The notes: generated by a model from the sequence alone, not told the origin. A stretch of 64,000 nt of DNA from an uncultured candidate division Zixibacteria bacterium (GCA_963707365.1 CAVPPI010000004.1:981469-1045468); one strand, 5' to 3'; counted from the stretch's first letter, positions 8,789 to 61,435 are shown. Made by a program: numbers and translations.

Positions 8789-8808
8789 CTGGCGCTGGTG
8801 TGATAACG

Positions 8809-9501: not shown

Positions 9502-9526
9502 AGCCTGTCTCCTAACGATTGTCCCC

Positions 9527-12705: not shown

Positions 12706-12842
12706 CGTTCTCCCTCAATTGCGCCCTGTCTGGCTCTTGCTCGCCGTTATCGACTAAAAACGGTTGTCAGAGCCGACCTTGCTGTTTAGATTACGGGCGA
12801 TATCACATCGTCGCTAAACTCACCGTACTCTCAAGGCTCTAT

Positions 12843-13517: not shown

Positions 13518-13529
13518 GCAGCTCGCCTC

Positions 13530-15008: not shown

Positions 15009-15043
15009 AGCTCTCCTGCCGCTCCTTCTAAATCATCTCGAAG

Positions 15044-31429: not shown

Positions 31430-31444
31430 GGGGGGCACAGCGTT

Positions 31445-31706
31445 TGTAGGCTCACGCCGCGGCGTGAGCCTACAAAGGAATCGTTGGAGCCAGGCCCAAA
31501 GCGGGTTTAAGCCTGCTACCATATAGGTCATAACGGTAGGCGTTTGATTTATCAAACGCGTCACGTTATGCAAGACACCGGCAATTGCATCGTACGGGTA
31601 GACTCGTTCCGTCAGGTCTTGCGACCTTCTGAGGGCGTGTGACCTGACGGTTCTGATTGATTGCTGTCAGGTCACATCCCACCACAGGTGGGACAGGACC
31701 TGACAG
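31445..31706. repeat. REP/BIME-like palindrome cluster D, inside the imuB-dnaE2 intergenic space
   Basis: A 45-nt stretch (31445-31489) is identical to 28598-28642 and includes the perfect 28-nt palindrome at 31446-31473. Also present are gtaggcgtttgatttatcaaacgc (31536-31559), the hairpin ccgtcaggtc...gacctgacgg (31609-31650) and ctgtcaggtc...gacctgacag (31664-31706). Confidence 0.7.
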
Positions 31707-31716
31707 AACAAAAAAA

Positions 31717-42662: not shown

Positions 42663-42752
42663 AAAACGGCTCAAACAATGACATTCCCCCCTTATGTAGC
42701 AGATAGGGCTTGTGATTTTTTTCACTATTTTACCGTAGGAAAAGGAGGTCCA

Positions 42753-44151: not shown

Positions 44152-45343
44152 ATGAAACAACCACTGAAATTGGTTCTCACAGCTGCAGATGGTATTCGGC
44201 ATCACTGCCGCCGCGCTGGTTGTACAGACCGATACGGCTAACGCCATCCCGGCTTTCGCTCGCAAATACTCCATGTCATGTACCACCTGCCACGCACCGT
44301 ATCCGCGGCTCAAAGACTACGGTGATGAGTTTGCCGGTAACGGCTTTACGCTCAAAGATCAGGACGCTCCCCGTTACTATCAGAAAACGGGCGATGAAGA
44401 TCTTGCCCTGATACGAGATCTTCCCTTTGCAATTCGCCTGGAAGGCTTCTTCAAACATCAGACCGAAACCGACAAAGACCTCGACTTCACCACACCGTAC
44501 AATGTCAAACTGCTGTCCGGAGGCGCCCTGTCGAAGAATATCGCCTATTACTTTTACTTTTTCTTCAGCGAGCGCGGCGATGTAGCCGGGCTTGAAGACG
44601 CTTTCCTGATGTTCAACAACGTCTTCAACAGCGAATTGGATATTTATGTCGGTCAGTTCCAGGTATCCGACCCGCTCTTCAAACGTGAACTGCGCCTGAC
44701 CTATGACGACTACCAGATCTATCGAACGACAGTGGGAGCCTCGGATATCAACCTGACTTATGATCGCGGTATCATGCTGACTTACGGATTCGAAAGCGGC
44801 ACCGATGTTATCGTCGAGGTTGTCAACGGTAACGGGTTGGTTGCCGCCGATGATTTCAGAACCTACGACAAGGACAAGTATAAAAACTTCGCAGGACGGA
44901 TATCTCAGGATATCGGCGCCTATGTCAGAATAGGCGGGTTCGGGTACTACGGCAAAGAAGCTCGCTTCGGCAACACCAACGAGGTCTGGATGCTGGCCCC
45001 TGATTTCACCGTCACGCCCAACGACAAACTTACGCTCAACGTGCAATATGTTGAGCGGAGTGATGACAACCCGAACCTTGTCTTGTTGAAACCTGATGAC
45101 GAAGTAAAGACCAGCGGTGCTTTCGCGGAACTGGTGTTCATGCCCGATGGTGAGCGCAGCAAGGTATATGCGGTCGGGCTCTACAACTGGGTCGACTCCG
45201 ACTTCGATGGCGAGGACTATGAGTCCCTCACCGGTCACGTAGGCTACCTGCTGCAAACAAACATCCGGCTGATAGCCGAAGACACTTACGATATTCAGAA
45301 CGAGGAAAATCGTTTTGTGGTCGGATTCATAGCGGCTTTCTAA
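44152..45343 (+). CDS. fused monoheme cytochrome - outer-membrane beta-barrel (Cyc2-like architecture); probable frameshift within the signal peptide (~44185-44190)
   Basis: AAGGAGGAGGAGAAT precedes the ATG at 44152 (MKQPLKLVLTAA). The frame then shifts to ...FGITAAALVVQTDTANA / IPAFARKYSMSCTTCHAPYPRL. There is a single CxxCH right after the cleavage site. About 350 aa of alternating beta-strand pattern follow, ending ...RFVVGFIAAF (terminal Phe). Confidence 0.6.
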
Positions 45344-45496
45344 GTCACACCGGTTTGTTCAAAAAATCAACAAGGGCGGCTTTCACAAGGCCGCCCTTTC
45401 AATTGTCGCACAGCAACTGCGGCATATTCCAGATAATTTCACTACTCATGTCCATTGAATGCGAAAATTTGTCACCCGGTTGCCGATACTATCTGT

Positions 45497-46285
45497 ATGC
45501 GCTACGTTTGCTGGGTCACAGCCACACTGTTCGCATTGGCGTTCGCCTTAACTGCGAAATTCACATTTCACGCTGACAGCGTTTCTTCGGGCGGGCGATT
45601 CGATGATCCTCATCGTGATATTCCGTGCACCGACTGTCATCCCCTGAGAGCCGACGTAAGCTCAGGCGGTCCGGTCAACCGGCAGTTCCGGCAACAGTGT
45701 GAGAAATGTCACGATCCCGGCGCCGCCAATCTGACAGGCATTCCTCTGAATTTCCACAACTCGCGCGAACGGTCATGTTCCGAATGCCACAGCTTTCACA
45801 ACACGGAACAGATATCTCTGGCAAACTCGAGTTTCCTGGTAAGCTTTGAAAACAGTTTCCAGAGGGGACAATGCTATTGTTGCCACGGACCGGGGGAAAA
45901 CATCAAGAGCCTGTCGCCGGGACACAGGGCCGCAGCGGCCATTTTCCATTCGGACTTCGCTGTTCTGGGAAGGCTGAGTTCTTCGCAAACGTGCTTGATA
46001 TGTCATTCCGATGCCAGTGCTCTTCCGGTCGGCGAAATTTCACAATACGCCAAAGGCGCCCCGCGTTTCAAAGAACACGGTAGTCACCCTGTCGGCGTGG
46101 AAGTCATTCCCGGCACCGGCAAACCCGGTAACGCCATCATCGATCCGATTGGCCACAAGATCCAACTTTTCAACAATCGCATGGAATGCTCAAGTTGCCA
46201 CTCACTCTCGGCGGGACACACGCCCTTCAGGCTGGTCTACCCCACCAGAAATGAGTTATGCCGGGCCTGTCATAAAATCGATTAG
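45497..46285 (+). CDS. secreted heptaheme c-type cytochrome
   Basis: The leader is MRYVCWVTATLFALAFALTA (the ORF track gives an alternative TTG at 45455). There are seven CxxCH motifs in ~235 mature residues: CTDCH, CEKCH, CSECH, CYCCH, CLICH, CSSCH and CRACH. Confidence 0.75.
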   Translation: MRYVCWVTATLFALAFALTAKFTFHADSVSSGGRFDDPHRDIPCTDCHPLRADVSSGGPVNRQFRQQCEKCHDPGAANLTGIPLNFHNSRERSCSECHSFHNTEQISLANSSFLVSFENSFQRGQCYCCHGPGENIKSLSPGHRAAAAIFHSDFAVLGRLSSSQTCLICHSDASALPVGEISQYAKGAPRFKEHGSHPVGVEVIPGTGKPGNAIIDPIGHKIQLFNNRMECSSCHSLSAGHTPFRLVYPTRNELCRACHKID

Positions 46286-46380: not shown

Positions 46381-47436
46381 TTAACCACCTTGTACGTGAC
46401 ACTGATTACATACTTCCTGATAACGAGTGCCGTCGCCGTTCTCGCCCCAGTTGGCCGCACCGGTCGCCCAGATAATGCCGAAAGCATTCTGGTTACCGTG
46501 GGCTTTGTGGCAAGACATACAGCTCGGGGTCAGATCAGCAGGAGCGCCGGTCCATGGCGTTCCCCAGTCACCCCAGTCACCGGTCGCACTCATCACCTGA
46601 ACGCGGTAGGCGCGTCCGGAGAACGTAGCGGTGCTCGAGTGACCACCCGTTATGGCGCCAATATTGGCGTCTGCGGTCGGGTGACGATACCATTCGGTCT
46701 GGGTCGGAGCAGCGGCGTTTCTCATGTTAGCGTCGGCTGACGTACCATGGAAATCCGTGTGACAGCCCTGACACCAGGCACCGTAAGCCGAGCCGGTCGG
46801 ATCCGGTTCGTTGAAGAACACGTTCTGAATGTCATAGTGGTCGCCACCAAAGGCGGCCGACGCTTCATAGATGTCCTTCGTCAGGTCATTGGTTCCAACA
46901 GCGTAGCTCAGACCGGGGCCTGATACTCCGCCTGCGGCATAAAGCACATTGCGATAGGGATTGTTGCCCGCGGCAACGAATCCACCATAACCGTGTTGCT
47001 GGTGACAGTCAACGCAACTGAGACCATCGGCGTTGGCGAAAGTACCCCCCGGGGCAACATCCGTCGAACCGAGAGTGTGACCCGTCGCATCGAAATACGG
47101 GGCCGTGTTATCACGGTTCAGGGCGCCTGCCTGGCGGCCGTTCGTCGGAACATTACCGCCATTGGCAGCCAGCACGTCAGGAGCGAATGTCTGATTGTCG
47201 TGACAGGCTAAACAGAGATTGTTTATCTCGTCACGCAACAGAAAATGATACGGACCTGAAGCACCGAGGCCGACCGTGATGCCGGTACCATCGGAATTGT
47301 ACCCGTGAGTCTGACTGTAGTGCATCACGTGGCACTCAGCACAGTTGAGCGATGCACCCGTATGGTAATCGCCGGCAATTGCGCTGGAGGCAAGAAGCGC
47401 GAACGCCGCGATTCCTACCAGGATGAGTTTCTTCAT
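46381..47436 (-). CDS. OmcS-family hexaheme c-type cytochrome (candidate nanowire-forming cytochrome)
   Basis: GGAGG sits 8 nt before the ATG at 47436. The leader is MKKLILVGIAAFALLASSAIA. There are six CxxCH motifs. Motif-for-motif, the order matches my recollection of G. sulfurreducens OmcS: YHTGASLNCAECHVMHYS, LL..x7..CLACH, GH...APGGTF...CVDCHQQHG, AWCQGCHTDFH...RHP, CMSCHKAHG and a C-terminal CNQCH. Confidence 0.75.
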   Translation of the reverse strand: MKKLILVGIAAFALLASSAIAGDYHTGASLNCAECHVMHYSQTHGYNSDGTGITVGLGASGPYHFLLRDEINNLCLACHDNQTFAPDVLAANGGNVPTNGRQAGALNRDNTAPYFDATGHTLGSTDVAPGGTFANADGLSCVDCHQQHGYGGFVAAGNNPYRNVLYAAGGVSGPGLSYAVGTNDLTKDIYEASAAFGGDHYDIQNVFFNEPDPTGSAYGAWCQGCHTDFHGTSADANMRNAAAPTQTEWYRHPTADANIGAITGGHSSTATFSGRAYRVQVMSATGDWGDWGTPWTGAPADLTPSCMSCHKAHGNQNAFGIIWATGAANWGENGDGTRYQEVCNQCHVQGG

Positions 47437-47560
47437 GAGTTTGACCTCCATACCTTTGCTCTTAAAAAGTTAAACTCGTTGAATTATGGTTAATAAGGCT
47501 TAGTTCTGAAAAATGAGAATACGTTTCAGGACGACCAAACTCCCCGAAAGGAGCACAGCA

Positions 47561-47833: not shown

Positions 47834-48860
47834 TCATTTGGTCTCAAAACGCTGGATTCGACTGCCTATTCGCTCTACGATAAAGAAAACTGAGTCATTT
47901 GCCGCCGCGATATCGGCCGGATATCGGAATTCACCGGGGCTAATACCATATCCCCCAACTATTTCACGAAATGTCCCGGAGCTGTCAAAGACTTTTACCA
48001 CCTGCCGAAGGCCATCGGCGACCCAAATGGCTGGCCGCCCTTCCCTATCGGACATAATCTCTATTCCGGACGGAAACGACACGTCGCCGCGCTCAATCTG
48101 ATGACCGCTGAATCCATATAGAAAAGCACCATTGGTATCGAATACTTTGATTGCCGGTTCAGCGTACAGGTCTGTCACGAACAAACGATCCCGCCAGATC
48201 TGAATTCCCAGAGGAGTATTGAACTCAGAAGGTCCCCCGCCTTTTTGACCGATAGTCCTTTTCGAGTTCAAAATACTCATCAAGCACCATTATGGTGACA
48301 ATATCGCCGGTCGTTATGACGTAGAGATTGTCCTCGCTGTCGATAGCGAGGCTCTGCGGCTTTATCGTCAGGGAGGTGTCGCCATAAAGCGTGTTCAGGT
48401 ATACTTTTTGAAGCGATTTGCCCCTGAAATCGAGCACATCCAGATAATCCGCAAGGTTGTCGGAGAGGATTATCTCCCCCAGCTTGTTTACTGCCAGATC
48501 GCGTGGTTCTCCTTTGATCAGTCGACCGGACCGCTGCTCGATAACAAAGTGCTCGAACGAGTATTTGGGGTTGAGCAACTTATCGTATATGACCACCCGG
48601 CCATTGCCGGCATCGGTGACAAAAAGTTCATCGGCCGATTTATCGAAAAAGAGGGAACCGGGGCTGCGAAGGTTCTTCTGCCAACCGTCATCAAAGGCAA
48701 TTGCGGTAATATTGAAGTCGAGGGCCGGTGGTGTGTCCTGTGCTGCAACCGCCACAGGAGATGCCAGACAAAGAAGCAACGAGGCAATAACCACGGGCGC
48801 GACTTTGCGAATCTCAGTTCTTTGAAAACAGATCGGAGAGTTCACTAACGGCATCCTCAA
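47834..48860 (-). CDS. secreted NHL-repeat beta-propeller protein, one apparent frameshift near 48230-48280
   Basis: The signal peptide is VVIASLLLCLASPVAVAAQD. Repeated NHL-type blades include LFVTDAGNGRVVIYD, LAVNKLGEIILSD and LFVTDLYAEPAIKVFD. ORFs 48225-48860 and 47834-48283 are consecutive parts of one gene. Confidence 0.7.
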
Positions 48861-49404
48861 CCATCTTTTTGGCCAGGTTATCGGCCGACCTCACGGCGCC
48901 GATACCGAAGGCAATTTCCCCCTTGTCGCCACGACCGTTGGAATTGGCCACCCATACGGTTTTTTTCGTAGCACAATCGATCAGGCGGCAATTGAACGCA
49001 ACTTCGGGCACCCGTCCCAAAAAGCTGTTATCATATTCTTCATACTCAATCGCAGCTCCTGTCAACAGAAGATCAACACCGAGACTGGCAGCGAGGCTGT
49101 CAATCTGAGCATCGGAAAGCAGCGACGAAGATCTGATTCTGAATTGTCTGAGGCTTTCGTACAATTGGCCGAATTCCACAGTCTCAAACCGGCTCTGTCC
49201 GGCCATGGCGTTCAGAAAATAATCGGTTAGTTTTTCGGCAGCCTTTTCCCTTCCGCTAAGATTCTCAAACGGCAAAACGGCTACTCGAGATGTGGAAGGC
49301 AACTGACTGTCGATGCGTCTTTTGGCCGTCAGATTTGACGCACATCCGGTCAGCATCAATATTATCAGTCCTATCGGAATTGTCCGTGTCAGAATATGGA
49401 ACAT
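48814..49404 (-). CDS. lipoprotein (LpoB/TolB-N-like, VAVLPFENLSG motif)
   Basis: The ATG at 49404 opens MFHILTRTIPIGLIILMLTGCAS, which contains a lipobox L-T-G-C. The VAVLPFENLSGREKAAEKLTDYF motif resembles small periplasmic-face OM lipoproteins. Confidence 0.6.
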   Translation of the reverse strand: MFHILTRTIPIGLIILMLTGCASNLTAKRRIDSQLPSTSRVAVLPFENLSGREKAAEKLTDYFLNAMAGQSRFETVEFGQLYESLRQFRIRSSSLLSDAQIDSLAASLGVDLLLTGAAIEYEEYDNSFLGRVPEVAFNCRLIDCATKKTVWVANSNGRGDKGEIAFGIGAVRSADNLAKKMVEDAVSELSDLFSKN

Positions 49405-49408
49405 ACCG

Positions 49409-50014
49409 TTACCTCGATACTCTGCCGAATGATTCGGCCACTTCATGACACACTTTCGTAGTCATCGCGCCCAGCGTATGGGTTTCCCCGAAGGAAAAGA
49501 CAGGAAACTTGGGACCACCCTTGCGGGTGGTTTCATAGCTCCAGACTACCCGGCCGGTCTGGCAGTCGATAAAACGGACAATCACCGCCACCAGAGGGAA
49601 TTCGTCCTGACCTGAACGCACCATCGTGAAGTCTTTAACGGCGCCCACGAATATGCCCTCGACTTGCGCCTGTTCACCGATAGCCATAGCCTGTTCGCTG
49701 GTCAGTTCATCCAGCGCGTTTACCATATCCTGTTTGACTACCGCCTTAACCACCTTCTCGACATCACCCATGTTGGCCACGGAAACCGTATTGAGCATAA
49801 GCAATTCGGTCACGAAGCTGGAGGTCACTTTGTCGGAAGCATTCTTGTCGGTGGTCAGATTTGAAAACGGCACGACCGCGACGCGCGAATAGAAGCCAAA
49901 ATCGGCCTCGTCGTTGACATACATCCGGTTGCTGCCGCACGATGCGAGCGTTAACAGAAAACCGAAAGCAAGAAAGAGCTTGAGCTTTAACATAGCATTA
50001 CCTGTTTTTTTCAT
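49409..50014 (-). CDS. lipoprotein, paralog-like to the downstream one (VAVVPFSNLT motif; DUF799-like)
   Basis: The lipobox is LTLASCGS. It shares the motif VAVVPFSNLTTDKNASDKVTSSF and the GxxIEG/LLTGAV-type pattern with the 48814-49404 protein. It overlaps the barrel gene stop by 4 nt. Confidence 0.6.
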   Translation of the reverse strand: MKKTGNAMLKLKLFLAFGFLLTLASCGSNRMYVNDEADFGFYSRVAVVPFSNLTTDKNASDKVTSSFVTELLMLNTVSVANMGDVEKVVKAVVKQDMVNALDELTSEQAMAIGEQAQVEGIFVGAVKDFTMVRSGQDEFPLVAVIVRFIDCQTGRVVWSYETTRKGGPKFPVFSFGETHTLGAMTTKVCHEVAESFGRVSR

Positions 50015-51745
50015 ATCTGTATACTTAACACACTTTGAATGGATTCGTTTACTATTTTTTCTCCCAGGGCATCCCGGGTACGGCTGTGCAGGTAGGCCAC
50101 CGAGAGCGTGACTTTCTGCGAAAGATACATCAGGATCTGCCCATTGACCGTACGCGGCCGGGTCTCAATCGATTCGAACTCACCGTCTTCTCCTACAAAA
50201 ATATCCCGCGTCTGTTTCTGTTCGTTGACCGAAAGATATAAATTAAAAGCCCGGCGAAAAGAATAACTGATATAGCCGGTGGCGGAACTCAGGCTGGACC
50301 TGACGGTACTCTTATAATTGCTGTGAATATAGGTGGCGTTCATATTAAGATTGGAGCGGGGCGTAAAAGTCAACCCGGCGTTGTAGTTTTCCGAAAAGGA
50401 CCTGTCGAATCTCAGTCTGTCGCCGATATAGAGCGCCGTTATTCTGAACCTGCCTTCGAGACGCCGCGTGAAATTCACCCTGGTGTCAAGCGAGCGGGTC
50501 AACTGATACCGCCGCTGCTCGTCAACCGGGTCACTATCGTGAGTCAGTGATATGTCTATAAAAGTCTTGATATACTTTCTCGGAAACAGATTCAACGATG
50601 CTTGATATGTATCAAGAATGTAGTCACCGTCGTTGACCGTGGCTATTACCGCTCCCGATGTATCCCTGATCGACACCAGCCTCGTGGACTGCTGGAAAAT
50701 CGTACGATTGAAAGTCAGACGGGTATCCACGCCGCTGCGGAAGTACCGGGTCAGCACCGCCCCGAGATTCGCATATTCCACTATATTATTGTCGCCGTTC
50801 TGACGATTGTTCTGATACCCCTTCCCCGCCTGAAAGCTGAGATAACCGGTCGGCGTGAATTCAGCCACGCCGGACATCGTCTGATTATCGTTCTCAATCA
50901 CCGTCTGCTGCTGTTCCGCCTCAAGAAACCGACCGGAGTAACTCAGATTGACAGAGACTTTATCGATTGCGTTTAGAAGCAACAGCGAGTTTACAGAGTG
51001 AGTGAACGAAGTCTGGTTCAGTATCGAGTGGCTCTCACGGCGCGTATCGTAATAGTTGTAAGTAGCACTGGCGTAGCCGAGACCGACAAGGTTACGATTG
51101 AATCCCACAGTCCCCGAGTAAGTACGGGTGGTGACATCTCTTCCCCCCGGAAGGTTACTGACTTGCCTCAGATTATTGTAGTTGGCCCTGAAAGTCAGCG
51201 GGTCAAGAGAATACGAGCTTTCCAAAACGACGTTACGATTGAAAGCATCAAATTTGGGCTCGAGTCTCTTTGTCGAAATTACTGAAATGTGAATAAACGA
51301 GATTGAAAGTCGGATAGTCGGTATAAGCGAGCTGGGCCGTTATTCGCCAGTCACGATAGTAAACATCGACAAACTCCGTAACGGCAGCTGTATAACTGCG
51401 CCGTTTATAGGGCGAGTAACGGGCGTTGAAGGCATAACCATAGCTCTTGAGATCAAGATAATAGACCGGCTGAAACTCATGATAGTTGGCAAACGATTGC
51501 TCTCGCCGCTGAAGATTGGCCGTCAGACGGATATGGTTCTTATAAAACAGGACATCTTCATAGTTGATGATAGCCGTCTCCCGCGTAATATCATCCTCAT
51601 CGGCTTCGCCGTTTTGCTGTTTGATATGTTCGTACGAAAGAGAAGCGTTCCCGAACAATCGCCCGGCCACAGCGGTATCGCACCATGGACCAACCAGTGC
51701 TGACAGAGAGAATAAAATCGCAAATACAGCGAAGCGATACATCAA
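50011..51745 (-). CDS. large outer-membrane beta-barrel protein (~575 aa), one apparent frameshift near 51225-51250
   Basis: The signal peptide is MMYRFAVFAILFSLSALVGPW. Alternating aromatic/polar strands rich in Y, N, S, T and R run throughout. ORF 51248-51745 ends ...SNFDKE, and the next frame continues RLEPKFDAFNRNVVLESSYSLDP (ORF 50011-51225). No CxxCH is present. Confidence 0.55.
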
Positions 51746-53904
51746 TAGTCTTCTCCCGTAGGATGATGACAGTTAGCGTAACAGGTACTGGTCGTAGCAT
51801 CAACTTCCTCCCAGCCGCTTATGTGACCACCGAAGATGAATGCGTGCGACGGCGCCCCGGCAGTCGGGGAACAGGGAGGAAAGATGTAATTGGAGCCGTG
51901 AATATTCCCGATTCCGGATCCGTTGTCACAGGCAGGATCCTGGTCGTCATCATAGCGCCCGGCATGACAACCGCGGCAGGACTGACCGTTGCGTCCGGCT
52001 CCCCCCGGATCGGTATGGGCGCGACGGTCGTGGTCTGCGAATCGCGATACATTCTCCGAATTGAACACATAGTAGTTTTCATCATGACAGCGCACACAGA
52101 ACTGCCTCTGGGCGCTCGGGAACAGCGTCCCGATAACAGGCTCGCGAAAATACGTCTCGACATACAACATGCCGCTGTTATCACTGCCGTGCCCCGTCGT
52201 TTCATGACAGTCAAAGCAGCTTATCACGTCATGCAAAGCCGTCTGGTTGAACGGCGGCAACATCGTGGCCGTGAAGTTGTTCACCGAACCCGGCACTGTA
52301 TAGGGATTGTTCCCCTGTGCCCGAACCGGGTGATAGGAAGAATTCAGAGGATCGAACTGGGTATATACATCGATAACTGTTGCCGCCGGGTCAGAGAAAG
52401 GCGCCAGCGATGATCCCCCCGGCACCTGTGCTTCAACCGACATAGCGCCGTTGCCGTCGTGACACTTCAGACAGAAAGAATTCTGCACCTCCACCACCCA
52501 ACTTTCAAGAAAGGCGCTGTTCAAATCGCGCGTGAAACTGCTGAAACCGGTAAGGGCCTGACCGTTATCGGGGTCTCTCAGTTCCACAAAACCGTTGGCA
52601 TGATAAGCACCATTGATATCGCCGCTGAACGCGATTCCTTCCATATGGCACACACCGCAGTCATTATTGGTGACCGTGTCGGTCACACCGATAGCATTGA
52701 CATGGTGAGCGTTCAGACCAAACTCACCGAGGATGGCTCGACGCGTACCCCGGGCGGTAGCGTGACACGCTACACAGGAGCCGCCGATACCGGGATTATG
52801 AACGTTATTGGCTGTGGGCGTTGAGTAATCGCGGCCGTGGCACTCGTAGCAATGTTCGGTCGACGCAGCCGTGTGTTCCGTAACAGAGGCCGGCAAAGGC
52901 GGAAGGGTGAGCCCCTCGATAGCATCGGCCTGGGCGACACCATCAGATGACGGATGACAGCCAAAACAGAAGCGCCGGACCTGCGCGTTATCATTACGGA
53001 TGTCTGTCAGCCCGTACCAGCCGGGCCTTTGATCGCTCAGGAGGTAGTTGTTTCCCCCCAACCCGCCGTAACCAATAGAACCGTGCGGGTTGTGACAATC
53101 ATAGCACGGCAGACGCATCCCCGATGTCACATATCCCCCGCCCGTGGTAATTCCGTGCCCGCTACTGGCGTTGGGGTTTATTGATCTGTCATAATAATAG
53201 GCTATCGTGCGTGAGGTATCATCCATACCGACCGGTCCGTCAACACGGTGGCATTCCAGACAGAGGGCATAATTCTCCGCCTCCAGCCCAAGCTGCGAAC
53301 CGGTGATACCGCTATAGGTCGTATCGAGCATATCGTGTGGAGCGACTGTACCGTGCGGATTGTGACAGTTGTCGCAGGAACCGTAACCGAACCAATCTTT
53401 GACAGGCATGTCCTGGTCGGCATAGTGCGGTGAGAAAAGACTGTTCTCCCAGACGACCCGTCCCGGCCACCTCACCCGGTTCTCCAGGCCAGGCAACCGC
53501 GTGCCGCCGCTGTTGAATTCAAAATAACCCGGATCCGATGAACCGATTGGCAGCCGGTCGGATTCCTGAGCCGGATAACCCGCTGTGCCCCCCGTCGGCT
53601 GGTCAGCGTGACAACCGCCTGAAGAAGCAGAAAAACATAGCTCGTTGGAATTGTAAGTAAACAAGCCGTATGGGAACGTATTGTCAGGATCATGGCTCAC
53701 ATGACACTGGGCGCAACTCCCCTGAGGATAATCCGGCGTTCGCAGCACGCCGTTATCAACCGAACCGTGAGGAGATTGCCTATACTGACTGTCATCGGCG
53801 CCGACCGACGCCGCAAACCAGAAAAGTATAGCGCCAAGGGCAACAATCGCCCGGGCGAGGCGCATCGATGAAATGTATCTTATTTGTTGTGACATTGCTG
53901 ACAC
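51742..53904 (-). CDS. secreted multiheme c-type cytochrome, 12 canonical CxxCH plus two atypical motifs
   Basis: The leader is MRLARAIVALGAILFWFAASVGA (an alternative start is at 53865). By direct reading it has 12 CxxCH, a CYANCH (CX3CH) near the C-terminus and NELCFSASSGGCH (CX7CH). The last sits where the hexaheme paralog has NELCLSCH. Confidence 0.8.
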   Translation of the reverse strand: MSAMSQQIRYISSMRLARAIVALGAILFWFAASVGADDSQYRQSPHGSVDNGVLRTPDYPQGSCAQCHVSHDPDNTFPYGLFTYNSNELCFSASSGGCHADQPTGGTAGYPAQESDRLPIGSSDPGYFEFNSGGTRLPGLENRVRWPGRVVWENSLFSPHYADQDMPVKDWFGYGSCDNCHNPHGTVAPHDMLDTTYSGITGSQLGLEAENYALCLECHRVDGPVGMDDTSRTIAYYYDRSINPNASSGHGITTGGGYVTSGMRLPCYDCHNPHGSIGYGGLGGNNYLLSDQRPGWYGLTDIRNDNAQVRRFCFGCHPSSDGVAQADAIEGLTLPPLPASVTEHTAASTEHCYECHGRDYSTPTANNVHNPGIGGSCVACHATARGTRRAILGEFGLNAHHVNAIGVTDTVTNNDCGVCHMEGIAFSGDINGAYHANGFVELRDPDNGQALTGFSSFTRDLNSAFLESWVVEVQNSFCLKCHDGNGAMSVEAQVPGGSSLAPFSDPAATVIDVYTQFDPLNSSYHPVRAQGNNPYTVPGSVNNFTATMLPPFNQTALHDVISCFDCHETTGHGSDNSGMLYVETYFREPVIGTLFPSAQRQFCVRCHDENYYVFNSENVSRFADHDRRAHTDPGGAGRNGQSCRGCHAGRYDDDQDPACDNGSGIGNIHGSNYIFPPCSPTAGAPSHAFIFGGHISGWEEVDATTSTCYANCHHPTGEDY

Positions 53905-54842
53905 CCCGCGATATAATCTAAATCACCTTCAATATATGACCACAGCAACGATTTCTCATCCGAACCGCCGTGGGCCTTGTGACAACTCCCGCAGAATATC
54001 CGATTGGATTCCGCCGGCTGACGCGAGCTAATAAAATCACTTGCCGTTGGTACTTCGAACGGTAACCTGATAATACCATTGGCATCATCAGCGAACCCTT
54101 CCCCCGTTCCGGAAATCCAGTGGGGAACATCCGTATGGCCATCGACTGGAAACTCGTTAATCGCCACATCCACCGGATGGCTATTGAAGTGGGCCGGTGG
54201 TGACGCCACACTATTTGTCTCGAGCTGATTGTGGCAGGAAACGCACCAGGCCGAGTAGGCCTGTCTGTATCCGATGTTGTCCCTGCTGTACGCCGTCGCC
54301 GATCCGCCGGCAGTCGGCGGAATGTCCGGAGAAAATTCAGTGAAGAGATCGCTGCCCTCTTCCAGAACAAGGGAGTCACCCACACCGGCCGGATCGAAAA
54401 GCAAGTTGCGGTAGTTGCCGTTACCGTGCGGAGCGTGACAACTGGCGCAGTTTAACTCTACGAACTGAGCTTCCACTTGAAGGGGCACGATACTCCCCAG
54501 CGCCAGGTTGTGGCCCATCGGATTATCAATGCCGATGATATCAAAATATCCTCCGGCACTCTGGCCGGACAGGGCCGCATCGTACATCTGCACCGGCCGC
54601 ATGATATCCGGCGCTGTCGGATCGGTACCATCATGGCACGACAGGCACAATTCGTTGACAGTATTTTTCAGAAGTAAAGTCGAGAACGGACCGCCGGGTA
54701 GCGGCTCTCCTTCTTTGGAGGCGTGCTGAATGTGACAATCCTGACAGCGTAGATTCGGTTCAACGTGCCACTGCCCGCTCCGTACGCCGGAAGCGATAAA
54801 AAATAATGTAAGCAAAGTCATTGTTCGAGTCATCACAGTCAC
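53880..54842 (-). CDS. OmcS-family-like hexaheme c-type cytochrome, operon-internal paralog
   Basis: The leader is MTLLTLFFIASGV. The six CxxCH motifs follow the same order and spacing logic as the 46381-47436 protein: CQDCHIQH, LLL..x7..CLSCHDG, GHNL...CASCHAPHGNGNYRNLL, AWCVSCH...HP, CGSCHKAHG and a C-terminal CQQCHNK. Confidence 0.7.
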   Translation of the reverse strand: MTVMTRTMTLLTLFFIASGVRSGQWHVEPNLRCQDCHIQHASKEGEPLPGGPFSTLLLKNTVNELCLSCHDGTDPTAPDIMRPVQMYDAALSGQSAGGYFDIIGIDNPMGHNLALGSIVPLQVEAQFVELNCASCHAPHGNGNYRNLLFDPAGVGDSLVLEEGSDLFTEFSPDIPPTAGGSATAYSRDNIGYRQAYSAWCVSCHNQLETNSVASPPAHFNSHPVDVAINEFPVDGHTDVPHWISGTGEGFADDANGIIRLPFEVPTASDFISSRQPAESNRIFCGSCHKAHGGSDEKSLLWSYIEGDLDYIAGCQQCHNK

Positions 54843-54844
54843 CT

Positions 54845-55801
54845 CTATTGCAGCGTGTAGAACAGCAATCTGCCGGTCTCCTCGAGCACAGCCATCCGAT
54901 TGTCTATTGTCCCGAGCATGGCCACCGGACTAATCGTGCTATTTTCGAAAGTCAGTACCGACAGTTGGGTGCCGGTCTGGTCAAAAATGCGAAACTGGCT
55001 GTTGGTATCATCAGCCACCCAGACGAATCCGCGAGTGTCAACCGCCACCGCAGCCGCCTCCCATCCTCTCTGCTCCGATGGCTGATTCCACCCTCCCTGA
55101 TAAAGAAATTTCCCATCGATCGCAAATACCTGCATCGGAAAGTTCTTCTGGTCGGCCACTATCAGTTTGCCGGGCGCCGCGGCAGTCATATACGCCGGGG
55201 CAAGCAACTTACCCTTGCCGGAACCGTCGCGAACAACAATCTCCTTAAATTCCCATTGCTGATCGAACCGGTAGATACAACCTGCATGGCGGTCCAGGAT
55301 AAGATAACTCCCGGTCGGTTCACGGACAATCTGGTCGATAGAGAATTTATCAGAAATACCGTTCAGGTCCGCCACTGTATCAATCACACCGGTATTGTAT
55401 TCATTAACGGCAAATATGATTGTCTTGTTCGCCAACGTGTAAAGAAGACGGGAGTCGGATTCGAAGCAAATAGAGCGAGGTTGTTCAAGTCTTACCTGCT
55501 CTCCCACCGTCCAGAGAAACCGGCCCTCCAAATCTACAATTACAATACGATTTGTGCTGAGGTCACTGATGGCAATCTTTTCGCCGTTCGGAGAGACAGT
55601 CATCGCCGATGGACGGTCGAGTTGGTAACGACCGCCTATCAAAATATGTTGACTCTCAATAGCCTGGGCAAGAGCCACGGAAACGTTTGCCGTGACGACT
55701 ATACCGGCTACGAGTAGCCAGAGGCAGGAGAAATAAGTTGCTATCTTGTACGCAGTGCTCTCCCTGGCCCTTAATGAGACACCGTGTGACAAATGATGCA
55801 C
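54845..55801 (-). CDS. secreted NHL-repeat beta-propeller protein
   Basis: A hydrophobic leader (CLWLLVAGIVVTANVSVALA) is followed by repeated blades: IAISDLSTNRIVIVDLEGRF, YLILDRHAGCIYRFD, LIVADQKNFPMQVFAIDGKF and VWVADDTNSQFRIFD. The start is uncertain because it overlaps the upstream gene end. Confidence 0.7.
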   Translation of the reverse strand: MHHLSHGVSLRARESTAYKIATYFSCLWLLVAGIVVTANVSVALAQAIESQHILIGGRYQLDRPSAMTVSPNGEKIAISDLSTNRIVIVDLEGRFLWTVGEQVRLEQPRSICFESDSRLLYTLANKTIIFAVNEYNTGVIDTVADLNGISDKFSIDQIVREPTGSYLILDRHAGCIYRFDQQWEFKEIVVRDGSGKGKLLAPAYMTAAAPGKLIVADQKNFPMQVFAIDGKFLYQGGWNQPSEQRGWEAAAVAVDTRGFVWVADDTNSQFRIFDQTGTQLSVLTFENSTISPVAMLGTIDNRMAVLEETGRLLFYTLQ

Positions 55802-58800
55802 AGCTTTCTATCTTTTTCAGCCACCAGTATTGCCGCGTAGTCAGACGAGTGTGGAGAGTGGCAACCGACACAGTTGAGAGGCTCCTTGGTCCGCGGGTCT
55901 GTCACACCAACACCCATCGGGTGATAGTGCGTCTCAACAGCACCCTCGTGACAGGTCAGGCAAAGCTCCATTATGTCGGATGTAGCCAGTAAACCGGCAT
56001 TGGTACTCGTATGTGGTTGATGGCAGTTGCCGCAGTCTTCAAAAGCCACGGCGTGTTGATTCTTACCTTTAAATTCCGAACCCTTATGACACGAGAGGCA
56101 CATCGACGGACCCTCTTTGAGAAGAAGACTCGAACCGTACCCGACGTGCGGACCATGACATTGAACACAGCCGTCCGCTTTGGTCAATGGAGCATGTACA
56201 ACAGCATTGGCGGTGGTCTCCAGAAAATCCTCGTGACATGCGAAACACATCTGGTTAACCGGAGCCACGAACTCATGGGCACTCATTCCATCGTGACACG
56301 AAGTGCATTCCCCATCGGCAAACGGAGCGTGCATGTCGGGCAGCAGAAGTCCTTTCGAACCGGCCGGACCGGCGTGAGCCGCGTGGCAGTTCTGGCAATC
56401 GACGCCTTCAAGGCTGAACCCTTTGTGCGCCGTACGCAGGTCGCGCGACGACAGATCGTGACACTGCCCGCAAAGCTCCATCTTGGAGTCAGTCAGCAGA
56501 GCCGTCTGATTTCCGGCATGAGCCACGTGGCAGGCGCCGCAATCTCCATCGGCCACCGGCGCATGCGGAGCACCCTCGGTGATCTGGCGGTTTATATCTT
56601 CGTGACAGGATATACAGAAACTCTCTGCCGGTTTGGTAGTCAGGGCCGGATAGGCCGACGAGTGAGGCTTGTGGCACTCAAGACACTGGCCTTCCTCGAA
56701 CGGGCGATGGTTGACAGCCATCTTCTGCTGGTCTTTTATATCTTCGTGACAGGACACACAGAGCAAACTCCCGTCAAGCCTCAGCAGACCCTTGTAGTCG
56801 GCAGCGTGCAAACTGTGGCAGGAACTGCACTCTTCACCGGCAAACGGAGCATGCTGGTGTTCCAATTCAGCCGATTCCGCCACCGTCTCGTGACACGCAC
56901 CGCAGAGATCCATGGTCGAAGCTACGAGAGCAACTTTGTTATCAGCGCCCTTCTCGTGGCAATCCTCACAACCACCATCGGCAAACGGCGGATGAAGCAT
57001 ATTTCTTACCAGCTTGTCCTGCTCGCTGACGTGCGGATTATGACATTCCAGACAGTCAGCCGTCGTTATATCATACCCCCCGTGAACTGTCGTCAGGGCA
57101 TCATCCACATCATGACACGTTACACAAAGATCCGGAGCGCCGGCAATCACAAAGCCGACATTGTCCGAACCGTGAGCGGCATGGCAGGCATCACATTCGC
57201 CCTGCGCTACCGGAGCGTGGGCATTCTGCTTGCGGAAAGCCTCCTTTAACTCATCGTGACAGGTGTAGCATAAATCGGCGGAGATGCCCGTTAGCTTGGG
57301 AAGCTGACCTACCATCAGTCCACCGACGTTAATTTTGGTCATCCTACCGGTGACAAGCTTGGCTTCATTACCGCCGTGAGGATTGTGACAACCGGCGCAA
57401 TCACTTTCAGCAGCCGGCGTATGAACAAATTCTTTTTCAAGGTCAAGACCTTCATAGTCGTGGCAGGATGCACACAGGTCGTTGTTTCGCGCCGTCAACA
57501 GGTGCAGATTGTCTGCACTGTAGTGCGGCTGATGGCAACCCTGGCAATCATCCACAGCCGGAGCATGAGGATTGGCCATGTTGACTCGCTTATTGATATC
57601 AACGTGGCAGGCAAGACACATCGCAGCACCTTCACCGCGGACCAGATGCGGCGTGTCGCTGTAGTGCGGCAAATGGCAGTCGGAACACTCGCCGGTCAGG
57701 TATGGCTGATGCCCCGAGGAGGCATTCAACGCCTCGCGGTCAGGTTCGTGGCATTCCCCGCACAACTGCGCCGACGGAGCTTTCAGAAGCCCCTCGGGAG
57801 TCCCCTCGTGAGGCTTGTGGCAGCCGAGACAGTCATCGAGGGCGGCATGAACGTTCGAGGCAGCATCGCGCGCAGCGGCAAAATCTTTATGACAACCAAG
57901 ACACAGCGAAGCATCGTCGGCCTTCGCCAACGAAGCATTATCAGAACCGTGTACCTCGTGACACCCACTGCATTCACCGGTCACTACCGGCATATGCGGC
58001 CTCTGACCACCTCCGGTCAATACCGCGTCGTGGCACTCACCGCACAGAGTTCGCTGGTCCGCCTTGAGAAGATTGCCGAACCGCGATGAGTGCGCAGTGT
58101 GGCAATTGTCGCAATTGTCAGCCTCGACAGCGGGATGAGGATGCGATTTGGAGATATTGTCAACGATACCATCATGACAGGCCGAACACAGTTCACCCAC
58201 CGATATTCCCTCTTCAAAAGCTACTTTTCCATCGGCATCAGGAAGAGAGTGACAGGTCTCGCACTCACCCGAAGCAAACGGCGCATGAGCATCATCGGCG
58301 AGCAAACCTTTTGTATTCGAGGCATGGGCGGCATGGCAATCACTGCAAGGCAGGTCTCCCGCATTGCGTTCTTTGTGTACGCTCACCCAGGTTTCATCGG
58401 ATTGATCATGGCAGGAACCGCACAGACTGTTGATTTCGGCCGTGAGAAGGCCGGGGTAACTGCTGTTGTGAGAAGTATGGCAGGTCAGGCACTCCATCTG
58501 GTCGTACGGGGCGTGGATGAATTCTTTCGCGCGGGCGGCATCCATATTGTCCTGGTGGCACATTAAACAGAAATGCTCCACCGGCGCATCGGCGGCCGGC
58601 TCCCAGAGCATACCGGTTTCGTTGGAACCGTGCGGATTATGGCAATCCCAGCATTTGCCGGAGGCAACCGGGAAGTGTACGCTTCCCTGGCTGTACTTTT
58701 CTTTGAGGTCGGCGTGACAACTATAACACAATTCGGACGTAACGTCCTGAAGGATCAGCTTCTGAGCAAAGCCGTGGCGTTTGTGACAACTCTCGCAGTT

Positions 58801-58968
58801 CTCGTCTTTGATCGGCTTGTGCGCAAATTTCACAGCCGAATAAACCTGCTTTTCTTTCTGGTGACAGTCGTAACATGTCTTTGCCGCAAACGCAGACGTG
58901 GCAAAAGCCAACGTGATTACAATGGTAAAGCTGATCGCTGTTTTGTATGTGACAAGTGTCCGCCGCAC
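55771..58968 (-). CDS. giant secreted multiheme c-type cytochrome with 42 CxxCH motifs (paired-CXXCH repeat architecture)
   Basis: The leader is ISFTIVITLAFATSAFA. I counted 42 CxxCH in 1065 aa by hand, about one per 25 residues. They are arranged as ~21 repeats of LCxxCH-(~15-20 aa with HxP)-CxxCHxxH. Confidence 0.9.
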   Translation of the reverse strand: MRRTLVTYKTAISFTIVITLAFATSAFAAKTCYDCHQKEKQVYSAVKFAHKPIKDENCESCHKRHGFAQKLILQDVTSELCYSCHADLKEKYSQGSVHFPVASGKCWDCHNPHGSNETGMLWEPAADAPVEHFCLMCHQDNMDAARAKEFIHAPYDQMECLTCHTSHNSSYPGLLTAEINSLCGSCHDQSDETWVSVHKERNAGDLPCSDCHAAHASNTKGLLADDAHAPFASGECETCHSLPDADGKVAFEEGISVGELCSACHDGIVDNISKSHPHPAVEADNCDNCHTAHSSRFGNLLKADQRTLCGECHDAVLTGGGQRPHMPVVTGECSGCHEVHGSDNASLAKADDASLCLGCHKDFAAARDAASNVHAALDDCLGCHKPHEGTPEGLLKAPSAQLCGECHEPDREALNASSGHQPYLTGECSDCHLPHYSDTPHLVRGEGAAMCLACHVDINKRVNMANPHAPAVDDCQGCHQPHYSADNLHLLTARNNDLCASCHDYEGLDLEKEFVHTPAAESDCAGCHNPHGGNEAKLVTGRMTKINVGGLMVGQLPKLTGISADLCYTCHDELKEAFRKQNAHAPVAQGECDACHAAHGSDNVGFVIAGAPDLCVTCHDVDDALTTVHGGYDITTADCLECHNPHVSEQDKLVRNMLHPPFADGGCEDCHEKGADNKVALVASTMDLCGACHETVAESAELEHQHAPFAGEECSSCHSLHAADYKGLLRLDGSLLCVSCHEDIKDQQKMAVNHRPFEEGQCLECHKPHSSAYPALTTKPAESFCISCHEDINRQITEGAPHAPVADGDCGACHVAHAGNQTALLTDSKMELCGQCHDLSSRDLRTAHKGFSLEGVDCQNCHAAHAGPAGSKGLLLPDMHAPFADGECTSCHDGMSAHEFVAPVNQMCFACHEDFLETTANAVVHAPLTKADGCVQCHGPHVGYGSSLLLKEGPSMCLSCHKGSEFKGKNQHAVAFEDCGNCHQPHTSTNAGLLATSDIMELCLTCHEGAVETHYHPMGVGVTDPRTKEPLNCVGCHSPHSSDYAAILVAEKDRKLCIICHTVSH

Positions 58969-58977
58969 AACTACCTC

Positions 58978-59436
58978 TCACTTTCTGGCTGGCGCCGTGA
59001 TGTATTTCTCACTCACCTTGAAGTCGACAAGCTTGAAAGCCAGAAGATCATCACGCTTGAAATGAGGTGACGTCAAGACGTAAAAACCCCAGCTCTCCTG
59101 CTTAATCTCACCTTCAAACGAAACCCTGACCCTCACCGCCGGATTGTACAAAGTATCAGACATCTGCAAAGCTTCACCCGTCTGCGTTATTCCCAGATGG
59201 GGATTAAAGCCTATGACAGTTGCCTCATACTCCTCCTCACCAATATAAAACGGTTGCTCCATTCCGACAGTATCAAATTGCACAAATTCGGGATAAAGCC
59301 TGTGGCGGGTCTCAATAATAAAATACTCTACTTCCGAGCTTACATCGGTGGAATCGGCCTCTTCGGCACAAACTTGAGAGGATGACATGAAGATCGGAAG
59401 GATGCCAAAAATTAACGGTGCGATATACTTATTCAT
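58978..59436 (-). CDS. small secreted protein of unknown function, first gene of the cytochrome operon
   Basis: The 152-aa ORF has the signal peptide MNKYIAPLIFGILPIFMSSSQVCA and no heme motif. I recognise no family. It ends 9 nt before the 42-heme gene. Confidence 0.55.
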   Translation of the reverse strand: MNKYIAPLIFGILPIFMSSSQVCAEEADSTDVSSEVEYFIIETRHRLYPEFVQFDTVGMEQPFYIGEEEYEATVIGFNPHLGITQTGEALQMSDTLYNPAVRVRVSFEGEIKQESWGFYVLTSPHFKRDDLLAFKLVDFKVSEKYITAPARK

Positions 59437-59676: not shown

Positions 59677-61435
59677 TCACAGCATGAGCTGTCTGCTGGC
59701 CAGTTCCCGGTACAAAGTGGATGACTTCAGCAGGCCGTCGTGGGTCCCCTGGTCGACAATGCGCCCCTTATTCATCACCACAATCCGGTCAGCATGGCGG
59801 ACAGTGGCCAAACGATGCGCCACGATAATGGCCGTCTTTTCCTTGAGCAACTGGCTCAGCGCCTGCTGAATAAGCTCTTCAGATTTTGAGTCGAGAGATG
59901 AAGTAGCCTCGTCGAGCAAAATAACCGGCGGGTCTTTAAGCACGGCGCGGGCCAGACACAAGCGTTGTTTCTCGCCGCCTGAGACCGTGACACCCCTCTC
60001 GCCTATCTCTGTGTCATAGCCGTTCTTCTGACTAATGATGAAGTCATGGATATTCGCTATCCGCGCCGCCTTTTCTACAACATCCATTGCTGCCCCGGGG
60101 TCGGCATAAGCGATATTATCCCGGATTGACATCTTAAAAAGCAACGGATCCTGATCCACCAGACTCATCAAGCCGCGAAGGGCTTTGAGATCAATCTGCC
60201 TCAGGTCAACACCGTCGAGCGACACCGAACCGGAATCCGGGTCGAAAAAGCGCATAATCAGATTGATCAGTGTCGTCTTCCCTGCGCCCGACGGTCCCAC
60301 TATGGCTACGGTTTCGCCGGGATTGATGTCGAGCGACAGATTCTCGATACCAAAGTCGGAGTCGTGGTGACGATAATTAACATTGCTCAGTCTGATAGCA
60401 CCGCGCACATCCCGAAGCGCCACCGGCTGAGAAGCTTGTTCTACGGCAGGCGGAAGTTCAAGATACTCAAACACCCGGTTTACCGATGCCATCGCTATCT
60501 GAATATTTACGTTTATCGAAGCAAGGTCCTGCACCGGACCGTATAGATAGGCCAGAAGCATGTAAAATGCCATCAGGGCGCCAAGTTTCATCGTTCCAAC
60601 AGCAATCAGGTAAGTACCCCACGCCAGAACAATAACAGGTCCCAGCATATTGAGAAAGTAAACGAAATTGTTTGCCAGACGAGCTAACGATGGCGCTCTG
60701 TATATACAATCCCCTGAGGCGCACCAGAAGACCGGTCACTTTGTCGGTCTCCGCATCTTCCTGACCAAAAGCCCGAACAGTTCTTAGCCCCCCCAGTGAT
60801 TCCTGCAACCGTCCCTGAAAAGACGCTATTGTCTCCTGTAGCTTTCTGGCAATACCGTGAGCTTTAACGCCAAAGAAATTGGAGAAGACGATTGTCAACG
60901 GCACCGGAGCCAGGGCCACCAGCGTAAGTTTCCAATCCACGAAGAGCAAATAGACCAGGATACCAACCAGAAGGAGGATATTCTGAAGAAACCTGAGCAA
61001 AGTTGAGGCCAGAAGATTCTGGATTCTGGAGGCATCGGAAAGAATACGCGAGATAATTTCGCCCATCTGGTGCTGCTGATAGAAACGAAATGAAACCGTC
61101 TCAAGATGCGCAAACAACTCTATCCGTATGTCATTAATTAGTGACGCTCCGATCCTGGTAGCAAGGTAGTCCTGCGCCAGGGAGAATATGACTCTGAAAA
61201 AGTAAATACCAATCAGGACAATGCCGAAAAGCAGAGCCGGTGTCCAATCGATGCCGTTCGCGGCGGTCTCAACCAGATGCGGAATGAGGTCATCGATCAT
61301 GTACTGCACCGAGGCAGGCAAGGCCAGAGCCAGGGCAGCCAGAATCATCATGACCACAAAGGTTATTAGCTGAAGGTGCCAGTATGGCCTCAGATACCCC
61401 CAGAGACGTCTCCGTACGATTTTATCAGGAAGCAT
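59677..61435 (-). CDS. ABC transporter, fused permease/ATPase (MsbA/exporter type), one apparent frameshift near 60650-60700
   Basis: The N-terminal six-helix TMD is in ORF 60467-61435. The NBD in ORF 59677-60648 has Walker A GPSGAGKTT, signature VSGGEKQRL and Walker B ILLDEATS. Confidence 0.8.

Follow-up and report, generated by a model that had tools for sequence, protein, structure and literature searches.

A putative companion family of OmcS-like cytochromes with a haem attachment motif of variable length, viewed from a Candidatus Zixiibacteriota gene cluster

Among described multihaem cytochromes, the closest to those considered here is OmcS of Geobacter sulfurreducens (structures 6EF8 and 6NEF; paralogues OmcT, OmcJ and GSU2501), the only one among its relatives for which polymerisation has been proven (PMC12977616), and accounts of how wires of the OmcS type are fastened to the cell and supplied with electrons are still called speculative (PMC12307469). 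PMC12977616, citing Shen et al. 2025, ties the block GSU2493-GSU2500 to OmcS nanowire maturation and secretion. Here we analyse two neighbouring genes in a 64-kb stretch of a Candidatus Zixiibacteriota metagenome-assembled genome (MAG), referred to as the window, over the whole of which all coordinates are counted. One encodes an OmcS-like hexahaem cytochrome of 320 residues (p320), and the other a cytochrome of 720 residues (p720) in which seven residues separate the two Cys of what appears to be its second haem site; p356 denotes a 356-residue OmcS-like protein of the same cluster. We propose, with a probability of roughly 60%, that p320 belongs to the OmcS family and that p720 serves as its adaptor, anchor or cap, bearing a stretched haem-2 site that would be loaded by the general cytochrome c maturation system.

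Haem c attachment by motifs other than CXXCH is documented, and a 2024 survey lists CXCK, CX2CK, CX3CH, CX4CH, CX11CH, CX15CH and CX17CH as known (PMC11492766); extended motifs such as CX15CH are known to need special lyases (PMC6976685). In the literature searched, the terms CX5CH to CX8CH did not occur, nor did any experimentally documented CX5-8CH haem site. The CX15CH, CX11CH and CX17CH sites of MccA/SirA and similar proteins, as well as the CX3CH and CX4CH sites of tetrahaem c3 cytochromes, resemble the site described here in that one conserved CXnCH with n above 2 stands among ordinary CXXCH motifs. Unlike the MccA/SirA-type sites, however, it has an n of 5-8, outside the listed motifs, varies in length among orthologues and can lose its first Cys, and no lyase gene was found in the window or in two annotated related loci, nor any sign of an active-site role.

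We first consider p320, whose six CXXCH motifs begin at C33, C66, C132, C200, C284 and C314 (12 Cys in total). A full-length alignment with p356 (25% identity, E 2e-21) brings all six haem motifs into register, and p356 carries a VAPGGTF stretch that p320 lacks; we regard the two as true paralogues. A single-sequence search of the PDB with p320 returned OmcS (6EF8) as its sole match, weakly (E 3e-4), and a profile of 58 p320-family members (A2) reached 6EF8 with E 1.6e-15 and 60 bits. This alignment is collinear from the mature N-terminus (OmcS F1-H2 = p320 W25-H26) through haem 5, and haem 6 of p320 sits at the C-terminus, as in OmcS. OmcS H2, H13 and H16 align with p320 H26, H37 and H40, of which H40 is invariant in the 58 sequences; OmcS H16 is reported to ligate haem 5 of the adjoining filament subunit (Wang et al. 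2019). For its six haems the p320 family conserves exactly 12 His, the six non-motif His being invariant or nearly so, and p320 thus appears to keep the full bis-His ligand set, including the H16 equivalent.

The AlphaFold2 (AF2) model of p320 has a mean predicted local distance difference test (pLDDT) score of 81 and a predicted template modelling (pTM) score of 0.77, with residues 20-57 poorly modelled. Its top Foldseek match was 6EF8 (probability 1.0, E 4e-4), but at a TMq of only 0.48, a root-mean-square deviation of 9 Å and 17% identity in the structural alignment; OmcS was the only significant structural match, with OmcE a weak second. The Pfam model Paired_CXXCH_1 (PF09699; cut-off 20.6 bits) scores 63.8 bits against p320 and 72.2 bits against p720. 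Compared with OmcS, p320 is about 90 residues shorter, lacks the APGGT stretch, shows very low pairwise similarity and comes from a member of the Zixibacteria rather than the Desulfuromonadia, while both p320 and p356 share the six collinear CXXCH motifs. Taken together, we consider p320 a distant but real OmcS homologue.

The second protein, p720, combines 12 CXXCH motifs with C90-X7-C98-H99, a C-terminal C708-X3-C712-H713-H714 and two further Cys, C659 and C678. BLASTP aligned p320 29-140 with p720 60-185 (27% identity, E 8e-6), and hhalign, comparing A2 with a profile of p720 orthologues (A1), aligned p320 30-149 with p720 61-194 (probability 97.5%, E 7.7e-12), with haem 1 (CXXCHxxH), haem 2, a GYF motif and haem 3 (CXXCHxPHG) all matched. 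In both alignments the p320 segment NELCLSCH faces NELCFSASSGGCH of p720, and in the hhalign alignment a five-column gap of p320 falls exactly within the haem-2 CXXCH, opposite the CX7CH. The p720 peptide bearing this motif, CFSASSGGCH by direct translation, is NELCFSASSGGCHADQPTGGTAGYPAQESDR, and a second p720 peptide reads ...TCYANCHHPTGEDY. A first-pass annotation of the window, made from the sequence alone, had pointed to the OmcS-like motif order of p320 and its missing APGGTF, to the resemblance between p320 and the N-terminal module of p720, to the seven residues between the two Cys at the NELCLSCH position and to a CYANCH near the p720 C-terminus, and all of these observations hold.

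The same annotation had asked whether the CX7CH Cys are positionally equivalent to the haem-2 site of the paralogue and whether the codons are genuine. We examined both points in 24 full-length p720 orthologues from independent assemblies (49-100% identity, mean column identity 64%), in which the columns of C90, C98 and H99 are invariant. The haem-2 column of this alignment holds CX7CH in 18 proteins, CX5CH in P0021, P0022 and P0025, and CX2CH in P0023, P0024 and P0026 (P-numbers denote relatives, L001-L055 related loci). Because orthologues with CX2CH and CX5CH occupy the same column, the CX7CH must correspond in position to the haem-2 CXXCH, in agreement with the profile alignment. A sequencing artefact was rejected as an explanation, given that the codons are invariant across assemblies.

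Beyond these orthologues, the spacing varies widely. More distant members have CX3CH (P0042) or CX8CH in the haem-2 column, and a tally over about 160 family members gave CX2 in at most 39, CX4 in 6, CX5 in 5, CX6 in 2, CX7 in 43, CX8 in 47 and AX8CH in about 19; these are approximate regular-expression counts, in which CX2 is over-counted, some instances coming from the OmcS-like half of fusion proteins. The site type tracks lineage across 40 genomes: Zixibacteria and allies have CX7 in 14 loci and CX5 in 2, Gemmatimonadota and Glassbacteria have CX8, Krumholzibacteriia have CX6-8 with AX8CH in one locus, Eisenbacteria and unclassified relatives have mostly AX8CH and some CX8, and a deltaproteobacterial MAG (L055) has CX2. 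In 49 aligned proteins with the N-terminal module of p720, C98 and H99 are invariant, whereas the C90 column holds Cys in 43 of them and Ala in the other 6. A Cys-His pair that persists while the first Cys is replaced by Ala is the pattern of a haem anchor and not of a disulphide pair, in which losing one Cys ought to free the other to change, and a C90-C98 disulphide was set aside as the principal explanation on this ground. We infer that the CX7CH is a haem-2 site with a relaxed, lengthened loop that would still bind haem, mainly through its second Cys and His, in which case p720 would carry at least 13 haems. The stretched loop, rich in Gly, Ser and Ala, may conceivably shape a contact with the OmcS-like protein or the exposure of the haem.

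The obvious alternative is that the motif is degenerate, i.e. that haem 2 has been lost, the Cys pair forms a disulphide or a metal site and p720 holds 12 haems. The silence of the searched literature on CX5-8CH haem sites would fit such a loss, as would the special lyases needed by CX15CH-type motifs, none of which is encoded nearby, and the lack of a confident site geometry in the AF2 model. It is difficult to reconcile, however, with the presence of Cys98-His99 in every family member examined, including the approximately 19 in which the first Cys is Ala, with the orthologues that have a canonical CX2CH in the same column, or with the invariance of the module His residues H46, H160 and H184 and the retention of His at position 71 in 38 of the 49 N-module proteins. 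We therefore judge a degenerate site to be improbable. The first-pass annotation had allowed that the atypical motifs could be real haem sites or degenerate ones; for the CX7CH the invariant Cys-His pair argues for a real site, and the C-terminal motif is probably not canonical (see below).

The AX8CH proteins, found in L043, L044, L045, L048, L050, L051 and L052 and represented by P0331, P0357, P0358 and others, provide candidates for haem attachment by a single thioether in multihaem cytochromes of bacteria. Single-Cys haem attachment is familiar from the mitochondrial cytochromes c and c1 of Euglenozoa, which use A/FXXCH. AX8CH keeps the same half of the motif, namely the second Cys and the His, but differs in that it occurs in bacterial multihaem proteins and has a spacing of 8 rather than 2.

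A lengthened motif raises the question of how the haem would be attached. Pfam scanning of the sizeable open reading frames (ORFs) of the window (all but about seven) revealed no Ccm, CcsBA or ResB protein, consistent with the earlier remark that no lyase gene is visible in the window, and no cytochrome c maturation genes lie within the 10-kb flanks of L001 and L002. Since loop length varies among fairly close orthologues and the first Cys is dispensable, the general maturation system can be expected to cope with the site, and the stretched site is most likely loaded by it. The suggestion that a dedicated lyase is required is weakened accordingly, by the near-continuous range of loop lengths, the losable first Cys and the lack of a lyase gene in the window, L001 and L002. 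The natural series at this one haem position, with Cys-Cys spacings from 2 to 8 as well as single-Cys forms, bears on how much variation the maturation system tolerates.

We next asked whether p720 is an enlarged member of the p320 family, as the first-pass annotation supposed in proposing a single expanding family with 6, 6 and 12 or more haems. An exhaustive hidden Markov model (HMM) search returned 974 related representatives, 176 of them at E<=1e-30, and showed that the N-module (residues ~1-375) and the C-module (~365-710) each occur apart from the other, and also inside multihaem proteins of up to 4629 residues. The stand-alone N-module, of ~370-430 residues with six CXXCH and the odd site, is common among Zixibacteria, Krumholzibacteriia, Eisenbacteria, Latescibacterota, Fibrobacteraceae, GN15 and others; across the 49 aligned proteins, seven motif His and seven non-motif His are invariant. 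The C-module also occurs in immunoglobulin-domain surface cytochromes of Thermoleophilia and within giant Gram-positive multihaem cytochromes, and its front part shows generic c3/Hmc/MtrC-like similarity only. No PDB relative of p720 was found by sequence, and Foldseek gave no match to its AF2 model. We conclude that p720 is, as judged from these alignments, a seven-haem N-module of ~380 residues joined to an unrelated six-haem C-module, and that it belongs to a separate, widespread and previously undescribed family rather than being simply an enlarged paralogue.

In its full form, the expanding-family proposal holds that p320, p356 and p720 (6, 6 and 12-14 haems) build a mixed co-polymer filament and that both atypical motifs need a lyase encoded elsewhere. 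The paralogy of p320 and p356 and the relationship of the p720 N-terminus to p320 are in its favour. Nevertheless, no counterpart of the C-terminal half of p320 (haems 4-6) was found in p720, and the N-module profile failed to reach OmcS (E 0.033, out of register); the two modules of p720 lead independent lives in other lineages, and the near-continuum of loop lengths together with the single-Cys variants speaks against a dedicated enzyme. Both the 6, 6, 12+ expansion and the placement of p720 within it thus lack support, and we regard this scenario as highly improbable. Of the three roles envisaged earlier, co-polymerising, capping and anchoring, the first is weakened along with the family membership of p720, while a capping or anchoring link gains from gene adjacency and natural fusions, as described below.

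The C-terminal CYANCHH, also confirmed by translation, is a different matter. It reads CX3CHH in close orthologues and CX4CHH in the more distant A1 orthologues P0021-P0026. The wider C-module family keeps both Cys, but the second of them is followed by N, S, A, K, Q or G, and a His at +2 is often kept (C-x4-9-C-x-H). This variability makes haem binding doubtful, and it is both likelier and more economical to read the motif as a Cys-loop beside a ligand His; AF2 places the motif in a beta-hairpin, at low confidence. A 14th haem at this position is conceivable, though we lean against it. The orthologue alignment of p720 contains 19 invariant non-motif His for 12-14 haems, so the haem number cannot be told from the conserved His. 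C659 and C678 co-occur only in the Zixibacteria group, which suggests a disulphide.

The gene neighbourhood also bears on a link between the two proteins. In about 50 loci from at least eight phyla, an N-module gene directly follows an OmcS-like gene, the hosts being Zixibacteria, Gemmatimonadota, Krumholzibacteriia, Eisenbacteria, Glassbacteria, Fibrobacteraceae, GN15 and one deltaproteobacterium. In clusters of the Zixibacteria type, the order is a 152-residue protein, a 42-CXXCH cytochrome of ~1040-1066 residues, an NHL propeller, p320 (not always present), p720 or the N-module alone, a 540-573-residue protein, two lipoproteins, a second NHL propeller and a p356-type hexahaem cytochrome. 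Loci from outside Zixibacteria run NHL, p356-type hexahaem, N-module, lipoproteins, a small protein and the 42-haem cytochrome, again with an OmcS-like gene immediately before that for the N-module. A p356-type gene is present in nearly every related cluster. Moreover, in three Gemmatimonadota MAGs and one Glassbacteria MAG (L028, L030, L036 and L037), a p320-type OmcS-like protein and an N-module with CX8CH form a single ORF of 704-717 residues, the OmcS-like part coming first. In one such fusion, P0038, residues 14-329 align with full-length p320 (E 1e-27), and the haem-6 motif and the first N-module CXXCH lie only about 30 residues apart. Adjacency and fusion together fit a physical link between p320 and p720, as expected of a cap or anchor.

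These data suggest the following model, in which haem occupancy, docking geometry, cellular location and role are deduced from homologies, motif conservation and variation, synteny and gene fusions. The genes for p320 and p720 lie amid a conserved cluster, presumably for extracellular electron transfer, in which the N-module gene is an obligate companion of OmcS-like genes. The first three haem sites of the N-module copy the N-terminal half of an OmcS-like protein. By this OmcS-like N-terminal face, p720 could dock where haem 6 ends p320 or an OmcS-like polymer, in the manner of a next subunit, and the haem chain would continue into the 13, perhaps 14, haems of p720 and from there reach the 42-haem cytochrome and the envelope proteins. 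The role of p720 would accordingly be that of an adaptor, anchor or cap, and not that of a co-polymerising paralogue.

Several observations weigh against this model. Polymerisation is proven for OmcS alone, and filament formation by p320 is therefore an assumption. The haem-2/haem-3 unit of the aligned region recurs in p720 at residues 213-282 and 475-581, so that part of the p320-p720 similarity reflects a generic paired-CXXCH unit. For p720, AF2 gave a poor model (mean pLDDT 60, with residues 33-152 scoring below 50) that offers no confident geometry for the CX7CH loop. H71, the N-module equivalent of OmcS H16, is not His in every N-module protein, although it is in p720. The L002 cluster has no p320-type gene beside its p720 orthologue. 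Lastly, the CX3CHH is conserved in 23 of the 24 close orthologues, which leaves room for a 14th haem.

Some of these points feed the most serious competitor, a porin-cytochrome conduit without a filament, in which p720 and the hexahaems would be monomeric surface cytochromes that reduce or oxidise minerals like MtrC/OmcA, the 42-haem cytochrome would span the periplasm, the 573-residue protein and the lipoproteins would form the outer-membrane passage, and the N-terminal likeness of p720 and p320 would reflect nothing but a shared paired-CXXCH building block. The order of the genes, with a giant cytochrome of periplasmic type, cytochromes of extracellular type, a ~570-residue protein that matches no Pfam model and lipoproteins, would suit a conduit, NapC/NirT-type cytochromes flank the cluster both in the window and in L044, the paired-CXXCH unit is present three times within p720, p720 scores 40.8 bits against the Pfam MtrC/MtrF domain II/IV model (cut-off 30), and the proof of polymerisation is limited to OmcS. 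On the other hand, a shared building block accounts poorly for an N-terminal match that covers three haem sites as well as non-haem motifs at 97.5% probability, for the retention in p320 of the H16 equivalent and the complete OmcS His set, and for fusions of OmcS-like protein and N-module, which argue for direct contact; in addition, the barrel-like 540-573-residue gene is poorly conserved or absent outside Zixibacteria. Described conduits (MtrCAB, PCC3 and Uet) likewise combine periplasmic and extracellular multihaem cytochromes with envelope and NHL proteins, but the present cluster has no recognisable MtrB-type or PCC porin and does contain OmcS-like hexahaems, and, generic motifs apart, neither cytochrome is related in sequence to MtrA or MtrC. 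The 42-haem protein rises above the cut-offs for two decahaem models, DmsE and GSU2203, only when its repeats are added together. On balance, we consider a conduit without a filament unlikely, though worth keeping in view.

The model of p720 as adaptor, anchor or cap can also be extended. The N-module might represent a new and broad 'nanowire-base' family that imitates the docking face of OmcS to nucleate, cap or anchor filaments, its haem-2 site having evolved from CXXCH through CX4-8CH to AX8CH on ordinary maturation machinery. We offer this as a speculation that is rather unlikely to hold in full; if true, these attachment motifs, both CX5-8CH and the bacterial single-Cys multihaem form, would be the first of their kind, and the N-module the first anchor to be identified for a cytochrome nanowire. 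What appears to be new here in any case is a widespread and so far uncharacterised family that accompanies OmcS-like cytochromes and whose haem motif varies in length. A conserved partner cytochrome beside, and sometimes fused to, an OmcS-like gene is a concrete candidate for the attachment of such wires, and surveys that count only CXXCH (or CX2-4CH) would miss one haem in each protein of the N-module family.

The features of the cluster are compiled in the table below.

Table. Features of the cytochrome cluster in the window, with positions in nucleotides and the strand on which each lies.
Feature	Position	Strand	Description
p320	53880..54842	-	secreted hexahaem c-type cytochrome assigned to the OmcS family; second OmcS-like paralogue ('type 2')
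p720	51742..53904	-	secreted multihaem cytochrome; 12 CXXCH, a single CX7CH, and CX3CHH at the C-terminus
p720 N-module (residues 1-380)	52765..53904	-	six CXXCH and the stretched haem-2 site; conserved 'companion' module
p720 residues 61-194	53323..53724	-	three-haem stretch homologous to the N-terminal half of p320
p720 CX7CH (C90-FSASSGG-C98-H99)	53608..53637	-	putative stretched haem-2 attachment motif
p720 C-module (residues 381-720)	51742..52764	-	six CXXCH, probable C659-C678 disulphide, C-terminal beta-hairpin Cys-loop
p720 CYANCHH (C708-X3-C712-H713-H714)	51763..51783	-	doubtful as a haem site
p356	46381..47451	-	first of the OmcS-like hexahaems ('type 1'), carrying APGGTF; closes this conserved cluster at its far end
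NHL-repeat beta-propeller protein	54845..55801	-	Pfam NHL; position kept in Zixibacteria-type loci, matches weak or absent elsewhere
1065-residue cytochrome	55771..58968	-	42 CXXCH as 21 paired-CXXCH repeats; present in most related clusters
Small secreted 152-residue protein	58978..59436	-	first gene of the cluster; position and sequence conserved
Orthologue of the 540-573-residue protein	50011..51745	-	possible outer-membrane barrel; broken by a frameshift here
Two lipoproteins (201 and 210 residues)	48814..50014	-	lipobox Cys; weak LpoB/CsgG-like matches
Second NHL-repeat protein	47834..48860	-	frameshifted in this assembly

The translations of p320, p720 and p356 all open with signal-peptide-like sequences, and the databases hold identical or near-identical proteins from Candidatus Zixiibacteriota MAGs, named only 'cytochrome c3 family protein'. 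The database version of p720 begins at Met14, the ATG at 53865, which lies 14 nt past the p320 stop codon and is probably the true start. The 25-nt overlap implied by a GTG start is then probably not real, and the two genes are tightly packed.

Two further genes of the cluster are split, and neither frameshift touches the p320 or p720 gene. By tblastn, the intact 573-residue protein of L001 matches the window in two frames that meet at about 51255-51266, where short base runs (cccaaattt) occur, and the split is probably an assembly indel rather than the mark of a pseudogene. Likewise, the 335-residue NHL protein of L001 matches 47834-48860 in two frames with A5 and G5 runs at the junction (48234-48262), which is likely a second homopolymer error in the cluster. 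The 573-residue barrel candidate has no Pfam or NCBIfam match, and the Pfam scan returned none for the 152-residue protein. The lipoproteins match LpoB (E 2e-4) and CsgG (E 1e-3), both under the curated cut-offs, and both genes are found again in most related clusters. The 42-CXXCH cytochrome scores roughly 460-1500 bits where found and is present in nearly all of them.

The surroundings of omcS itself offer a further comparison, NHL-propeller, lipoprotein and giant-cytochrome genes being found near omcS/GSU2501 as they are here. The omcS-companion (osc) block, reportedly described by Shen et al. 2025 in Cell Chem Biol, is said to comprise a giant multihaem cytochrome, beta-propeller/NHL proteins and lipoproteins and to be widespread across phyla; the likeness of the present cluster to it is one of gene content and order. 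The layout of L055 (Deltaproteobacteria bacterium GWC2_42_11, 1-15797) is intermediate and reminiscent of the omcS region of Geobacter: a histidine kinase, a sigma-54 regulator, a 450-residue multihaem cytochrome and an NHL protein are followed by a 437-residue multihaem cytochrome, a 324-residue hexahaem, a 348-residue N-module cytochrome (CX2CH), a beta-propeller, a 689-residue protein of no known kind and an LpoB-like lipoprotein. The two larger L055 cytochromes had no OmcS match by single-sequence search. The Geobacter omcS region holds cytochromes and a lipoprotein, GSU2500 is not listed there as a cytochrome, and a homologue search from the deltaproteobacterial N-module returned no Geobacter-named protein.

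Additional genes adjoin the cluster in the window. Beside the p356 gene and divergent from it lies a gene for a 276-residue cytochrome with seven CXXCH (45455-46285, plus strand). Another gene encodes a 384-residue protein (44189-45343, plus strand) that has one N-terminal CXXCH (MSCTTCH) and a long remainder without a Pfam match, a layout like that of Cyc2-like fused cytochrome-porins. Two abutting ORFs of 186 and 299 residues at 42678-44134 (plus strand) contain haem motifs and match NapC/NirT weakly; they may be one frameshift-split gene and a possible quinol-side entry to the pathway. Just upstream of the cluster, on the minus strand at 59677-60648, is an ABC transporter ATPase gene, which in L001 is preceded by two radical-SAM/SPASM genes (1-4230). 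Farther away (29852-34815, plus strand), a gene for a DnaE-type polymerase comes after an ImuB-like one (IMS family), an arrangement that resembles an imuB-dnaE2 mutagenesis cassette, and the GC skew shifts abruptly near 26 kb, with the GC content falling to 0.48 at 26-30 kb.

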